Source of the DNA: a virus | Lineage: Duplodnaviria > Heunggongvirae > Uroviricota > Caudoviricetes | IMG/VR virus record: IMGVR_UViG_2654587570_000012 | DNA: 5,189 bases | Direction: 5' to 3' (one strand) | Part shown: positions 1 through 5,189 of the stretch, piece after piece | Layout: every line of letters starts with the position of its first letter | Numbering within the stretch: position 1 is the first letter of the stretch | Notes under the pieces: generated by a model | What the model saw: only the letters and a program-made list of their open reading frames with translations | Databases searched by the model: none | What the model was told of the DNA's origin: nothing | Translations under genes and position numbers: made by a program

Positions 1-1074
1 TCATTTGTCGATTTCAATTTTGTCCCATTCCCGTCCACGGCTGTCCCTATACCGCGCCGCCATTAAATCTGATTTATGCCCGAGAAGACGTTGAGCAAAC
101 TTATCGCCAATCTGGTTCCGGTATAGCCTCGCTGACAGGCTACGCAGTTCATGGAATGTTGGCGGGTTTCCATCAAATGAGAGTCCAGATGCATTTCTCG
201 CCTTTGTAAAATACTTTGATACTGTTTTCGGGGAAAGCGGATCGTGATGCTTTGATGCGATTATAGTTTCACTGCTGCTGGCCTCCCTGCATTTCTGTAG
301 TGTATCAGCCAATGAGATATTGAGCGCGTCAATCGTTAGCGTTAGCGGAATGGCGAGTTTAGCCCCTGTTTTACTCTGTTCAATGTGAAGATGGTTGTCG
401 TTTATGTCTGACCATTTCATTCTGCACAAATCGCCGACTCTCTGCCCTGTAACGACGGCCAAATCCATCGCCAGCCTTAGCCAGATAGGGAGAGGTTCGG
501 CTGCATGGTAAATCTCGACATACTCATTAGCTGTCAGCCTTGAGCGCCTTACTTCTGACTTTGCTGTACGGGTTGCTGTTACCGGATTCGTTGCAACATG
601 CCCCTCGGCTATTGCTTCACGAAAAACGTCAACAAGGGTTGACCTGATTAATTTTGCGGAAGCTGCTTTACCTTCTGCCACGTAGGTGTTTAGCATTGCT
701 GCCACTTCTTTCGTTGATATGTCAGTGAGCGGTTTGTCCGGCAATTTTCTTCGGATTGCCCTGATTTTGCTGGCGTAGTCGAGTAGAGTTTTCGGCCTGA
801 TCCCTCTTTCGGTGAGGATTCTTTCATATCGGTCAAGCCACACATGAAGAGTGATTGCGTCACCGCCTTTAATTCTGTCTATCAGTGATTTGCGTCCGCT
901 GTCTGAGAGTAACTCAATATTGGCCTGTATTGCTTCAGTGATTGCTATCCTCCTGTCTCGGCCTAATCCAAACTCTTTACCCGTCCTTGGGTCCCTGTAG
1001 CAGTAATATCCATTGTTTCTTATATAAAGGTTAGGGGGTAAATCCCGGCGCTCATGACTTCGCCTTCTTCCCAT
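1..1074 (-). CDS. int: Tyrosine site-specific integrase, lambda Int-like (357 aa, complete; stop at 1-3)
   Basis: Seen: complete 357-aa minus-strand ORF beginning MGRRRSHERRDLPPNLYIRNNGYYCYRDPRTGKEFGLGRDRRIAITEAIQANIEL and ending HELRSLSARLY...LLGHKSDLMAARYRDSRGREWDKIEIDK. Established knowledge: near-identical over long stretches to lambda Int as I recall it (356 aa), with the tyrosine-recombinase C-terminal box. The 23-nt overlap with xis matches lambda geometry. Confidence 0.95.
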   Translation of the reverse strand: MGRRRSHERRDLPPNLYIRNNGYYCYRDPRTGKEFGLGRDRRIAITEAIQANIELLSDSGRKSLIDRIKGGDAITLHVWLDRYERILTERGIRPKTLLDYASKIRAIRRKLPDKPLTDISTKEVAAMLNTYVAEGKAASAKLIRSTLVDVFREAIAEGHVATNPVTATRTAKSEVRRSRLTANEYVEIYHAAEPLPIWLRLAMDLAVVTGQRVGDLCRMKWSDINDNHLHIEQSKTGAKLAIPLTLTIDALNISLADTLQKCREASSSETIIASKHHDPLSPKTVSKYFTKARNASGLSFDGNPPTFHELRSLSARLYRNQIGDKFAQRLLGHKSDLMAARYRDSRGREWDKIEIDK

Positions 1075-1270
1075 TTCTGATCCTCTTCAAAAGGCTACCT
1101 GTTACTGGTCGATTTAAGTCAACCTTTACCGCTGATTCGTGGAACAGATACTCTCTGCCATCCTTAACCGGAGGAGGGAATATCCTGCATTCGCGCACCC
1201 ATCGACGAACTGTTTCAAGGCTTCTTGGGCGTCGCTGGCGAGCGTTCCACTCCTGAAGTGTCAAGTACAT
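1052..1270 (-). CDS. xis: Excisionase (lambda Xis-like, 72 aa)
   Basis: Seen: 72-aa ORF MYLTLQEWNARQRRPRSLETVRRWVRECRIFPPPVKDGREYLFHESAVKVDLNRPVTGSLLKRIRNGKKAKS overlapping the int start by 23 nt. Established knowledge: essentially the lambda Xis sequence and length as recalled. Confidence 0.93.
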   Translation of the reverse strand: MYLTLQEWNARQRRPRSLETVRRWVRECRIFPPPVKDGREYLFHESAVKVDLNRPVTGSLLKRIRNGKKAKS

Positions 1271-1565: not shown

Positions 1566-1847
1566 TTAATCGTCAATGTATTTTGAGCATTGTGGGCAAT
1601 CATCGATCCCACAATACGATTCATATGCATCCTTTATTGCGTCGCGGGCTTCAGTAAGAGTATTGAATAAGTTGCAGCTATTATCTTTTTGATATAGGTT
1701 AGTTCCTAATTTATAAGCAGAAGAAGCATCATTTCCGCTGTCTAAAATTACATCGTTATGGATTCTGCACCTTGCAAGAACTCCTGATCCCATAAGGGTC
1801 TGCATAGCCCATTGCTCTTGATCTTCACACAAATCATGAATGCTCAT
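1566..1847 (-). CDS. ea8.5: Ea8.5-like small cysteine-rich protein (93 aa from ATG 1847)
   Basis: Seen: the track ORF 1566..1865 begins at a GTG; the in-frame ATG at 1847 is preceded by AAGAGAGGTG (good Shine-Dalgarno) and gives a 93-aa product MSIHDLCEDQEQWAMQTLMGSGVLARCRIHNDVILDSG...CGIDDCPQCSKYIDD. Inference: same length (282 nt) and position (first gene upstream of the xis-proximal small ORF) as lambda ea8.5; the family assignment rests on synteny and the Cys/His pattern, not a confirmed alignment. Confidence 0.6.
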   Translation of the reverse strand: MSIHDLCEDQEQWAMQTLMGSGVLARCRIHNDVILDSGNDASSAYKLGTNLYQKDNSCNLFNTLTEARDAIKDAYESYCGIDDCPQCSKYIDD

Positions 1848-1961
1848 TTCAACACCTCTCTTCACGTTTCACACACGTTAAGATTAACAGTGTTTTTACA
1901 TGCTTTGGAAGATTTATTTTATAAAAACTCTTTTAATACAAATAGATATAATAGTTCACTA

Positions 1962-2759
1962 TTATAGCTCCTTTAATCGAGGCGGTTCTGGTAGAGGCAT
2001 CCAGTGGGTTACACCGCCAATTGGCTCATCGTCGTCGTACTCCAATGCGGTTATATAGAACCCGTCACGACGAGAATAAGAAATCCCGGACATTACAATG
2101 CCATCCGAAACAACAATAATGTCACCCGTTTCTTTCGGCATTCGCTCACTACAGCTTATCCAACCATCCGGAGTCACCGGAAGCGAGAACGGCAGCACAT
2201 CTCTGTGAACAAGTTTTTGCTGTGACAGGTTATCCAGAACTTTCTGTACTGCTGCATCACCGAATACACCAAGCGCATCTGCCATAACTCCTACAACCTG
2301 ATAAGCCTCAGCGCATACCGTGGATAAACCATCCGGAATTACCGGAGAGTTGCCGGGTTCTTTAATGTGCAAGCGAGGCTCACCATCTTTTGGTTCAGGC
2401 CACTGGCGCTCCATGTTGATCTTCAATTTATCTTCCATAGCAGCGGTAATTTCAGCATCGCTGATGCCAGCACGGCGCTGTGCATCCCACAACAGGAAAT
2501 GCATATCAGCCCACTCGCTGAGATCGTCTGGTTCGGCTGCGGCTTCCAGAGCCTCTTTTGAGAGGTGTTTCAGTGGACCAATGGGGCCAACGCAGCCAAA
2601 TGTGGAGTCAGACCATTTGGCATGCTCGTGGCGAATCAGTTCGCGTTCCAGTGATGCCAGTGCAATTCGTGCCAGTTCCATTTGTTCGCCACGAGTAAGC
2701 CCGTTTTCAAGCGGATTTTTAATGAACAATTCAATACGTTCTTTGGTAATAGTGGTCAT
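1962..2759 (-). CDS. Two-domain cargo protein (265 aa): N-terminal MazG-like all-alpha NTP pyrophosphohydrolase (DUF550, dATP/dGTP diphosphohydrolase-type), C-terminal DUF551
   Basis: Seen: ATG at 2759 preceded by AAGGA (7-nt spacer); N-terminal half has the acidic pattern SKEALEAAAEPDDLSEWADMHFLLWDAQRRAGISDAEI (E-x2-E ... E-x2-D on consecutive helices); C-terminus ends GWISCSERMPKE...GVTHWMPLPEPPRLKEL. Established knowledge: E/D-rich helical motifs are typical of MazG-type pyrophosphohydrolases; the THWMPLPEPP tail is the DUF551 hallmark in lambdoid phage proteins. Domain names are from memory, not a search. Confidence 0.75.
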   Translation of the reverse strand: MTTITKERIELFIKNPLENGLTRGEQMELARIALASLERELIRHEHAKWSDSTFGCVGPIGPLKHLSKEALEAAAEPDDLSEWADMHFLLWDAQRRAGISDAEITAAMEDKLKINMERQWPEPKDGEPRLHIKEPGNSPVIPDGLSTVCAEAYQVVGVMADALGVFGDAAVQKVLDNLSQQKLVHRDVLPFSLPVTPDGWISCSERMPKETGDIIVVSDGIVMSGISYSRRDGFYITALEYDDDEPIGGVTHWMPLPEPPRLKEL

Positions 2760-2769
2760 TTGTTAGTCC

Positions 2770-3525
2770 TTAAAGTGCTAGTTGCAATTGCATTTCAAAG
2801 CGGTCGCGTTGTTCACAATACGCAAGAGAACCAGGGCTATTGTGTGCCTCAATCCGTTCTACCATTAATGCTGCGCGTGTCTCTTTACTTGCAGGTGCAT
2901 AAGCCCCAGACCAGGCTTTATCAATACCGATGTTTCGAGCGACGTTCGTACTATCTGCGCTGGCTAAGGGTAATTTTGTGAATATCAGCGGATTTAACAT
3001 GCGCAATCCATGTAGTTTCGTAACCGGCTGACCATGCCCATCAACAATGTGACGAATCAGGTCTTTCATTCTGGCTACCGCAAGAGTTGGGCGCTTTACG
3101 TCATAGTCGCCACAACTACCGATAGCCACTCGCGGAAACTCATTGCACAAATGAATAAATCGCTCGTCACTTTCATTCATGTGCCACACTGGAACGCCAG
3201 CTAGTTTTCCGTGAGGCCACTCATTCAGAAGCGCATCATTTTCCTCCTCTCCGCCATCAATAACATCCGGGATAATGGCAAAATCGAATCCTGGGTGATT
3301 CTTCCAGCGAGCAACAAACTCGTAGTAATCGCTCCAGTCGATTTTGTTTTTGCCAGCTGCTTTCCAGGCGGTGAATGCACCGTTGTCCAGCGCGAACGAC
3401 TGACAGTATTCAGCCGCGAGATTGATCTGGCCTGAATGCGCAAAACTGATAAACGCATGTCGCCCTTTCCATGCTCTCATTGCGCACGTATCAGGAGTAA
3501 TAGGCCCACCGTGGTAGTGAATCAT
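2770..3525 (-). CDS. tRNA-guanine-transglycosylase (TGT)-like catalytic-core protein lacking the zinc subdomain; candidate DpdA-type 7-deazaguanine DNA transglycosylase (251 aa)
   Basis: Seen: start chosen at ATG 3525 (AAAGGAG Shine-Dalgarno; TGAgATG coupling to the ea22-like stop) rather than the track's ATG 3567, which overlaps ea22 by 41 nt. Motifs that line up in order with bacterial TGT as I recall it: LDNGAF (res 46-51) vs TDSGGF; FAIIPD (res 82-88) vs MIFDEC; VAIGSCGD vs YAVGGLAVGE; ASADSTNVARN (res 188-198) vs DCVMPTRNARN. The protein stops about 50 aa after the ARN motif, so the Cys/His zinc site is absent. Inference: TGT-superfamily enzyme, most plausibly DpdA-like; motif-level only. 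Confidence 0.55.
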   Translation of the reverse strand: MIHYHGGPITPDTCAMRAWKGRHAFISFAHSGQINLAAEYCQSFALDNGAFTAWKAAGKNKIDWSDYYEFVARWKNHPGFDFAIIPDVIDGGEEENDALLNEWPHGKLAGVPVWHMNESDERFIHLCNEFPRVAIGSCGDYDVKRPTLAVARMKDLIRHIVDGHGQPVTKLHGLRMLNPLIFTKLPLASADSTNVARNIGIDKAWSGAYAPASKETRAALMVERIEAHNSPGSLAYCEQRDRFEMQLQLAL

Positions 3526-3526
3526 C

Positions 3527-3934
3527 TCACTCTCCTTTGATGCGAATGCCAGTAGCGCGGATTGCATCGATGACTTCAGAAACTTTGTATGCCATTACCG
3601 TTTGGTAATCATCGTGAAAATCTGTTCGATGAAGCATGCTGCTACGTTCCGGGAGCAGTATTTCCCGCGCTTCCAGTTCTGCAATGCGCTTTTTTGCTGC
3701 TTCCAGTTCATCCAGTAATTCCAGCACGGTAGCCGGATTAGCCTTGGCAACAAAATCCCGGACTGGCTTACAATCAATCTCCGCAATGGGTTGATACGAT
3801 GTGTAGCCATGCTGTCTTGTATAACTACCGTGACGAATAACGAAAAAATCACCATTTATTTTTTTAGCCTGCCACTTATCTTCACCGGCTTTCTCTGCCG
3901 CTTCACGCAGTGCCTGAGAGTTAATTTCGCTCAC
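3527..3934 (-). CDS. ea22: Ead/Ea22-like protein (135 aa, GTG start)
   Basis: Seen: GTG start at 3934 with AGAGAGG Shine-Dalgarno 6 nt upstream and GTGA overlap with the upstream stop; N-terminus MSEINSQALREAAEKAGEDKWQ...INGDFFVIRHG and a coiled-coil segment LELLDELEAAKKRIAELEAR. Established knowledge: a conserved QALREAAEKA-type N-terminus with a variable middle is typical of ead/Ea22-family proteins. Shorter than lambda Ea22 (182 aa). Confidence 0.7.
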   Translation of the reverse strand: MSEINSQALREAAEKAGEDKWQAKKINGDFFVIRHGSYTRQHGYTSYQPIAEIDCKPVRDFVAKANPATVLELLDELEAAKKRIAELEAREILLPERSSMLHRTDFHDDYQTVMAYKVSEVIDAIRATGIRIKGE

Positions 3935-4152
3935 TTCGAACCTCTCTGTTTACTGATAAGCTCCAGATCCTCCTGGCAACTTGCACAAGTCCGACAACCC
4001 TGAACGACCAGGCGTCTTCGTTCATCTATGGGATCGCCACACTCACAACAATGAGTGGCGGATATAGTCTGGTAGTTCAGACGACGCATTTTTATTGCTG
4101 TATTGCGCTGTAATTCTTCAATTTCTGATGCTGAATCAATGATGTCCGCCAT
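3931..4152 (-). CDS. TraR/DksA-family C4 zinc-finger protein (73 aa), at the lambda orf73 position
   Basis: Seen: MADIIDSASEIEELQRNTAIKMRRLNYQTISATHCCECGDPIDERRRLVVQGCRTCASCQEDLE with the C-x2-C ... C-x2-C spacing of TraR/DksA C4 fingers; its stop overlaps the ea22-like GTG. Established knowledge: lambda carries a 73-aa TraR homolog in the exo-xis region that acts on host RNA polymerase. Confidence 0.75.
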   Translation of the reverse strand: MADIIDSASEIEELQRNTAIKMRRLNYQTISATHCCECGDPIDERRRLVVQGCRTCASCQEDLELISKQRGSK

Positions 4153-4250: not shown

Positions 4251-4532
4251 TCACCGTTCCTTAAAAACGCCGTTTAACATGCCGATTGCCAGGCTTAAAT
4301 GAGTCGGTGTGAATCCCATCAGCGTTACCGTTTCGCGGTGCTTCTTCAGTACGCTACGGCAAATGTCATCGACGTTTTTATCCGGAAACTGCTGTCTGGC
4401 TTTTTTGATTTCAGAATTAGCCTGACGGGCAATACTGCGAAGGGCGTTTTCCTGCTGAGGTGTCACTGAACAAGCCCCATGTCGGCAAGCATAAGCACAC
4501 AGAATATGAAGCCCGCTGCCAGAAAAATGCAT
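4251..4532 (-). CDS. Hypothetical protein (93 aa as drawn) in the position of lambda orf61; start uncertain
   Basis: Seen: ORF MHFSGSGLHILCAYACRHGACSVTPQQENALRSIARQANSEIKKARQQFPDKNVDDICRSVLKKHRETVTLMGFTPTHLSLAIGMLNGVFKER. No convincing Shine-Dalgarno before ATG 4532 (AACCACTGA-ATG). An in-frame ATG at 4562 (good lambda-like 20-nt overlap with orf63) is cut by TGA after 9 codons. Size differs from lambda orf61 (61 aa), so the call is positional only. Confidence 0.4.
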   Translation of the reverse strand: MHFSGSGLHILCAYACRHGACSVTPQQENALRSIARQANSEIKKARQQFPDKNVDDICRSVLKKHRETVTLMGFTPTHLSLAIGMLNGVFKER

Positions 4533-4542
4533 TCAGTGGTTG

Positions 4543-4734
4543 TCATACCTGGTCTCTTTCATCTGCTTCTGCTTTCGCCACCATCATTTCCAGCTTTTGT
4601 GAAAGGGATGTGGCTAACGTATGAAATTCTTCGTCTGTTTCTACTGGTATTGGCACAAACCTGACTCCAATTTGAGCAAGGCTATGTGCCATCTCAATAC
4701 TCGTTCTTAACTCAACAGGAGATGCTTTGTGCAT
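4543..4734 (-). CDS. orf63: Orf63-like small protein (63 aa)
   Basis: Seen: [63 protein letters not shown]; GGGAGG Shine-Dalgarno 4 nt upstream of ATG 4734; 28-nt overlap with orf60a. Established knowledge: identical length (192 nt) and overlap geometry to lambda orf63 as recalled. Confidence 0.65.
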   Translation of the reverse strand: MHKASPVELRTSIEMAHSLAQIGVRFVPIPVETDEEFHTLATSLSQKLEMMVAKAEADERDQV

Positions 4735-4889
4735 ACCGCCTCCCGTTTATTATTTATCTTCTCAGCCAGCCGCTGTGCTTTCAGTGGATTTCTGATAACA
4801 GAAAGGCCGGGAAATACCCAGCCTCGCTTTGTAACGGAGTAGACGAAAGTGATCGCGCCTACCCGGATATTATCGTGAGGATGCGTCAT
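4707..4889 (-). CDS. orf60a: Orf60a-like small protein (60 aa from ATG 4889)
   Basis: Seen: ATG 4889-4887 overlaps the exo-frame TGA (4888-4886) as ATGA, with GGGGAG 8 nt upstream; product [60 protein letters not shown]. The track's ATG at 4895 is only 2 nt from the Shine-Dalgarno and is rejected. Established knowledge: same 183-nt length and ATGA junction with exo as lambda orf60a. Confidence 0.65.
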
Positions 4890-5107
4890 CGCCATTGCTC
4901 CCCAAATACAAAACCAATTTCAGCCAGTGCCTCGTCCATTTTTTCGATGAACTCCGGCACCATCTCGTCAAAACTCGCCATGTACTTTTCATCCCGCTCA
5001 ACCACGACATAATGCAGTCCTTCACGCTTCATACGCGGGTCATAGTTGGCAAAGTACCAGGCATCTTTTCGTGTCACCCACATGCTGTACTGCGGTAATG
5101 ACTCCAA
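4886..5107 (-). pseudogene. exo: 3' remnant of lambda-type exonuclease gene exo (last ~65 codons only)
   Basis: Seen: translation ...[68 protein letters not shown]; the track's M is a TTG at 5107 with no Shine-Dalgarno; in this frame upstream there are TAA and TGA stops within 40 nt. Established knowledge: this is the C-terminal tail of lambda Exo as I recall it (...[67 protein letters not shown]). Similarity begins near 5090; sequence upstream is unrelated. Confidence 0.6.
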
Positions 5108-5108
5108 C

Positions 5109-5189
5109 TTATTGATAGTGTTTTATGTTCAGATAATGCCCGATGACTTTGTCATGCAGCTCCACCGATTTTGAGAACGACAGCGACTT
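5109..5189 (-). CDS. 3' end (last 26 codons) of an unidentified gene running off the window edge, replacing the exo 5' portion
   Basis: Seen: minus-strand frame open from the window edge, ...[26 protein letters not shown], with TAA at 5111-5109, one nt before the exo-remnant TTG. Does not match lambda Exo in any frame. Too short to assign. Confidence 0.25.

Follow-up and report, generated by a model that had tools for sequence, protein, structure and literature searches.

The stretch of DNA analyzed here, referred to below as the window, is 5189 nt long. Its genes are all on the minus strand, and they are arranged as in the early-left (pL) arm of a lambdoid prophage. The following genes were identified, beginning with the integrase and ending at the remnant of the exonuclease gene exo.

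1-1074, minus strand: lambda-type integrase (int)
1052-1270, minus strand: excisionase (xis)
1566-1865, minus strand: Ea8.5-like protein
1962-2759, minus strand: dATP/dGTP pyrophosphohydrolase + DUF551 protein
2770-3525, minus strand: 251-aa protein
3527-3934, minus strand: Ead/Ea22-like protein
3931-4152, minus strand: TraR/DksA zinc-finger protein
4251-4532, minus strand: 93-aa protein
4543-4734, minus strand: orf63 (DUF1382)
4707-4889, minus strand: orf60a (DUF1317), intact (Pfam PF07026, E 2.5e-38)
from 4886, minus strand: tail of exo

The 251-aa protein found no match in Pfam, and a search of PHROG families returned PHROG 887, 'queuine tRNA-ribosyltransferase' (E 2.3e-103). Because of this match, it is predicted to be a TGT/DpdA-like enzyme. 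The gene adjoins the one encoding the fusion of a dATP/dGTP pyrophosphohydrolase with DUF551, and the two may form a phage DNA-modification module. In relatives, an Nmad5 'putative nucleotide modification protein' is also encoded near N.

The exo fragment and orf60a

Alignment to intact exo genes delimits the remnant as follows.

4886-5093, minus strand: 3' fragment of exo (Red-alpha), a lambda-type exonuclease, nt 474-681 through the TGA stop

The fragment consists of 68 codons plus one base, comprising residues 159-226 followed by the TGA, and aligns pairwise with nt 474-681 of the 681-nt intact exo of three relatives (L001, L011, and L013). Homology to exo begins exactly at window position 5093, both in the pairwise alignments and in megablast, where this base is query position 97. 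Compared with the lambda exonuclease structures 6M9K, 1AVQ, and 3SM4, 65 of the 68 residues were identical (E 6.5e-42), and the fragment also matches the phrog_149 exonuclease family, while a Pfam search of the same fragment gave no domain match. In one intact relative, the YqaJ domain spans residues 24-167, of which only residues 159-167 are kept in the stub; a complete YqaJ / PD-(D/E)XK nuclease domain is not present. The catalytic residues of lambda Exo (Asp119, Glu129, and Lys131) are all encoded upstream of the break.

Translation of positions 4886-5188 (minus strand) in the exo frame gave two upstream stops (TGA and TAA), and exo-like sequence running from QYSMW to a terminal GEQWR and stop. 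This minus-strand translation confirmed the original prediction, which held that exo is reduced to a 3' stub, that a different reading frame lies upstream of it, and that stops close the exo frame. The stub is short, as predicted, and its length is 68 codons rather than ~65, a figure obtained when counting from an internal ATG at 5083. The alignment to lambda exo that had been proposed alongside places the stub at residues 159-226 and the junction at 5093/5094, inside the interval of 5090-5110 estimated beforehand. Two findings that had been named as speaking against the prediction, a sequencing frameshift and an exo origin of the upstream 26 codons, both turned out not to apply.

Neither of the two potential start codons of the stub is accompanied by a suitable ribosome-binding site. 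The TTG at 5107 lies inside an IS1 inverted repeat (see below) and lacks a Shine-Dalgarno sequence, as had been anticipated, and the 73-codon ORF that it opens is a chimera in which the first four codons and two bases of the fifth come from the IS1 repeat. For the internal ATG at 5083, the nearest Shine-Dalgarno-like sequence is a GGAG located 18 nt upstream. The stub does not form an ORF with both a start codon and a ribosome-binding site, and it is a pseudogene fragment without a usable start, which cannot be expressed alone. Because most of the YqaJ domain, the start codon, and the ribosome-binding site are absent on the stub side of the junction, exo is inactivated and non-functional in the window.

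The downstream gene orf60a takes its translation signals from the stub. A Shine-Dalgarno sequence (GGGGAG, 4903-4898) lies 8 nt before an ATG at 4889, which overlaps the exo TGA at 4888-4886; the signal and the ATGA coupling proposed for orf60a in the stub are thus real. Two starts are used in the databases, ATG 4895 (62 aa, in CFT073-like records) and ATG 4889 (60 aa, in PGAP annotations and most relatives), and the relatives with the 60-aa product show a 4-nt overlap with exo. Since the spacing to the Shine-Dalgarno sequence is 8 nt for the start at 4889 and 2 nt for that at 4895, the sequence favours the 60-aa product overlapping the exo stop. A terminator-like hairpin followed by a T-run (GAGGCTGGGTATTTCCCGGCCTT TCTGTTATCA) was predicted inside orf60a at 4803-4825 (minus strand); it is probably not meaningful, because the count of such sites was only slightly above shuffled expectation.

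The IS1 end upstream of the junction

The DNA on the other side of the junction contains the following features.

5094-5189, minus strand: right-hand end of IS1 (IS1A nt 673-768 of 768), with insA/insB oriented like exo
5109-5189, minus strand: last 26 codons and TAA of the IS1 transposase frame (insB / InsAB'), Pfam PF03400
5094-5116, plus strand: right terminal inverted repeat of IS1 (IRR), GGTAATGACTCCAACTTATTGAT, read inward

IS1 inverted repeats are 23 bp in length. Positions 5189-5094 (minus strand) are identical at 96 of 96 bases to the annotated 768-bp IS1A of E. coli K-12 MG1655 (blastn E 1e-45), and the identity stops at the very last base of IS1, which is the tip of the right inverted repeat. 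A match of this extent would not be expected by chance. When the two ends of the MG1655 element were compared, the IRR GGTAATGACTCCAACTTATTGAT and the IRL GGTGATGCTGCCAACTTACTGAT matched at 18 of 23 positions. The 26-residue frame, which ends in HYLNIKHYQ and a stop, covers positions 106-131 of the 131 positions of PF03400 (DDE_Tnp_IS1; E 2.1e-10). Its TAA is located at 5111-5109, within the right inverted repeat, in agreement with the prediction that a frame other than exo ends at 5109. As candidates for the upstream gene, a homing endonuclease and an alternative recombinase were both considered and rejected on the basis of the Pfam DDE_Tnp_IS1 match and the identity to IS1A.

The 96-bp segment is multicopy, being found in 5,289 of 5,426 complete E. 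coli genomes, on chromosomes as well as plasmids, at a median of 10 places per genome, and its matches, among those listed, are annotated as IS1 family transposase. The total of ~76,000 places was counted for the whole 490-nt query, and the first 96 bases account for tens of thousands of these. Query positions 97-490 (exo and orf60a), unlike the first 96 bases, match single prophage loci. The features by which IS1 can be recognized at this end, namely a terminus with an inverted repeat, the C-terminus of the transposase, and multicopy dispersal, were all found, and the upstream DNA is accordingly the right-hand end of an IS1 of the IS1A type. IS1 and exo have the same orientation at the junction, which can be placed to the base between window positions 5093 and 5094, corresponding to exo nt 473/474 in codon 158.

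The window begins on the final base of the int stop codon and extends exactly 96 nt into multicopy IS1; it may represent a whole contig. Its end resembles the point at which a short-read contig breaks off in a repeat, the overlap being ~k-1 for k=97. Assemblers break contigs at multicopy IS1, which probably explains why the sequence ends at 5189.

Origin of the junction

The closest relative of the window is a prophage of E. coli UTAK-6 (NZ_CP157151.1), which shows 99.9% identity over 5093 nt. Across the site of the junction, UTAK-6 runs straight through as ...ATGGCCCAGGT|GCAGTACAG... (with longer flanks, ...GCTTACATGGCCCAGGT|GCAGTACAGCATGTGG...), with exo uninterrupted by IS1, and the window has IS1 in place of everything upstream of the bar. 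In UTAK-6, bet and gam lie upstream of a contiguous exo, which carries a one-base frameshift flagged in the long-read assembly. Relatives at 99.3-99.9% identity are prophages located beside torS, in the bovine isolate UTAK-6, in O121 and O103 STEC, and in other E. coli. Over 394 nt, the stub and orf60a show 100% identity to many loci whose exo is intact. Taken together with the 100% identity of the IS1 piece to IS1A, this identity marks the event as recent.

Two genes of the UTAK-6 prophage, exo (L042, 5527-6208) and the TGT-like gene (L042, 7569-8325), are annotated as 'frameshifted', each by a single-base indel when compared with the window or with other relatives; both are probably long-read homopolymer errors rather than real pseudogenes. 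Many gene calls in the databases for a 65-aa C-terminal part of exo likewise stem from sequencing frameshifts.

We consider it highly likely (probability roughly 0.93) that an IS1 of the IS1A type transposed into exo of a lambdoid prophage belonging to a family that in relatives is integrated next to torS. IS1 is 768 bp long, is bounded by IRL and IRR, and encodes InsAB', whose translation involves a -1 frameshift at an A6C motif (PMC12428005). Target duplications of 8-9 bp have been reported (PMC5009759). In such an event, InsAB', produced by -1 frameshifting between insA and insB, would bind both inverted repeats, and the IS1 ends would be joined to a staggered cut in exo, so that a duplication of 8-9 bp of the target would adjoin the 768-bp element at its far end. 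From the position of the junction, the target can be predicted as follows.

5085-5093, minus strand: predicted 9-bp target, GCAGTACAG, exo nt 474-482

A simple insertion would have a second copy of GCAGTACAG beside the left end of IS1, and with a 9-bp duplication the left junction would read ...ATGGCCCAGGTGCAGTACAG|GGTGATGCTGCC.... Beyond it would follow the first ~160 codons of exo and then bet and gam (~0.8 kb further upstream). Both the completeness of the element, of which 96 bp are seen, and its far side, which lies beyond the window, are assumptions in this scheme.

The sequence of the junction was searched for in several collections. A 140-nt junction probe, compared by megablast with 5,426 complete E. 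coli genomes, matched IS1 alone, and no place covered at least 80% of the probe, while an exact scan for 28 nt across the junction found nothing in GTDB species representatives, JGI metagenomes, or IMG/VR. Among the matches listed from INPHARED phage records, all start at query position 97 and none crosses the junction. The predicted left junction (GCAGTACAG + IRL) was not found in a scan of the GTDB representatives. Exact-protein look-ups of orf60a (62 aa), two 265-aa ORFs, a 251-aa version, int, and the 73-aa and 65-aa stub ORFs returned only relatives with an uninterrupted or frameshifted exo, and none with IS1 in exo. In addition, the predicted N-terminal fusions of Exo to the IRL were constructed, 167 aa long for a 9-bp and 161 aa for an 8-bp duplication. 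For these products, Exo(1-160)-RVMLPTY and Exo(1-160)-R, no cluster representative covered the IS1-derived tail and no exact sequence was found for two N-terminal alleles. The source genome is most likely absent from these collections, and the negative results do not discriminate between insertion and rearrangement.

Among the ways in which IS1 could have come to lie at this position, simple insertion is the reading we favour, as the probable one. The visible IS1 end could alternatively be left over from a deletion or inversion mediated by IS1, either through loss of adjacent DNA or through recombination of two copies of the element, or be one arm of an IS1 composite transposon. Such an event would have deleted or displaced the 5' portion of exo, perhaps together with bet, gam, and the immunity and late regions, leaving an int-xis-b-region remnant, or else would have introduced foreign cargo. 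Because the window stops 96 nt into IS1 and the junction occurs in no searched collection, simple insertion and IS1-mediated deletion or inversion are inseparable here, and the ranking of the former above deletion is a prior, based on E. coli mutation-accumulation lines in which IS1A gave 233 new insertions and 43 deletions by IS recombination, a ratio of ~5 to 1 (PMC5009759). Those 43 deletions show at the same time that the rearrangement route is used by IS1A. Truncations associated with IS elements are many in the same arm of relatives (L012, L015, and L028), and in one further locus (L053) a truncated exo remnant lies near IS1 and tail-fibre fragments; the failure to find the reciprocal junction and product of a simple insertion points weakly in the same direction, the source genome apparently being outside the collections. 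Against these observations, each side of the junction is 100% identical to its intact counterpart, as would fit one recent event, and nothing positively indicates that bet or gam was lost. We therefore regard a rearrangement or composite transposon as unlikely, although it is the main alternative.

An artefact, either an assembly misjoin into the repeated IS1 or a frameshift error mimicking a truncated exo, is very improbable. The window does stop 96 nt into a multicopy repeat, where misjoins can occur at contig ends, and exo genes split by sequencing frameshifts are common in the databases, that of UTAK-6 being itself flagged as frameshifted. The break, however, falls exactly at the biological terminus of IS1, as it does in genuine transposition junctions, and a random misjoin would be unlikely to produce this. 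A sequencing frameshift was rejected, as homology to exo ends completely at 5093.

The original prediction had interpreted the junction as a mosaic one between phages, at which the Red module was replaced by another gene or recombinase and the stub kept for the Shine-Dalgarno sequence and coupling of orf60a. Lambdoid phages are indeed mosaic, some prophages that share the integrase (L022, L028, and L030) carry Erf/Abc as alternative recombination modules, and the signals of orf60a do lie in the stub. The adjoining DNA, however, consists of precisely the last 96 bp of IS1, up to the tip of the inverted repeat, and the frame taken for a replacing gene encodes the C-terminal end of the IS1 transposase. 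What lies beyond the junction is not alternative phage DNA shared with other phages, and among the phage matches listed, which start at query position 97, none crosses it. Replacement or deletion of the Red module is not implied by insertion of an IS element either, and the closest relatives carry gam-bet-exo contiguously. Selective retention of the stub is unnecessary as an explanation, the identity of the 394 nt to intact-exo loci giving no sign of long-term retention; because the event is recent, there has been no time for selection-dependent retention or for decay. A mosaic junction is hence scarcely credible. As a kind of event, an IS1 insertion such as this one is ordinary and already known, and it implies no new biology.

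Consequences and comparison with known systems

The exo gene in the window should be annotated as "exo pseudogene, interrupted by IS1", and not as a mosaic junction or a replaced recombination module. As judged from the sequence, the prophage has lost Red exonuclease function, and the suggestion that the defect in exo bears on the intactness of the prophage is supported, exo not being intact in the window. In lambda, exo is dispensable for growth in rec+ hosts, where red mutants grow, and N-antiterminated transcription from pL can read through IS elements and IS-borne terminators. Going by this knowledge of lambda genetics, the hit in exo alone need not abolish prophage induction or the expression of xis and int. 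A consensus scan for an outward hybrid promoter on the minus strand at the IS1/exo junction found none.

Erosion of the early-left arm by IS elements is common among the relatives that were fetched. In a sister prophage at torS (GCA_040813075.1), a complete 768-bp IS1 is located in ea8.5 (L023, 6642-7409, equivalent to L043, 10870-11637); it is 99.6% identical to IS1A and is flanked by a 9-bp target duplication, CAATACTCT. This sister illustrates a complete IS1 insertion with its duplication, and it shows that IS1 is active in the torS prophage lineage. Elements of the IS3 family were found in gam (L015), in erf (L028), and elsewhere (L047 and L050). A further exo remnant without its N-terminus is present in NZ_CM194533.1 (L053, 3110-3388), where, near pinE, it directly abuts inverted fragments of tail and tail-fibre-assembly genes and has an IS1 ~0.5 kb from it. 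This is a separate instance of an exo stub in a defective prophage, with a different junction.

Compared with lambda Exo (YqaJ / PD-(D/E)XK; PDB 1AVQ, 3SM4, and 6M9K), the stub retains residues 159-226 with 65 of 68 identical, whereas residues 1-158, including nearly the whole YqaJ domain, are missing on its side of the junction. Lambda-like relatives share the order exo-orf60a-orf63 and the ATGA overlap with orf60a. The IS1 end is identical to IS1 of the IS1A/IS1E type from Escherichia coli and Shigella in its last 96 bp, in the IRR, and in the C-terminus of the transposase with the stop codon within the repeat; it differs in that the terminal 96 of 768 bp are visible here, and in its insertion site, exo nt 473/474, which occurs in none of the searched collections. 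With the torS-family lambdoid prophages of STEC and other E. coli, the window shares the integrase, the excisionase, and the b-region genes at 99.3-99.9% identity. Where its sisters have IS1 in ea8.5 and IS3-family elements in gam, erf, or elsewhere, the window has an IS element in exo, and it adds one more case of IS elements eroding the early-left arm of E. coli lambdoid prophages.
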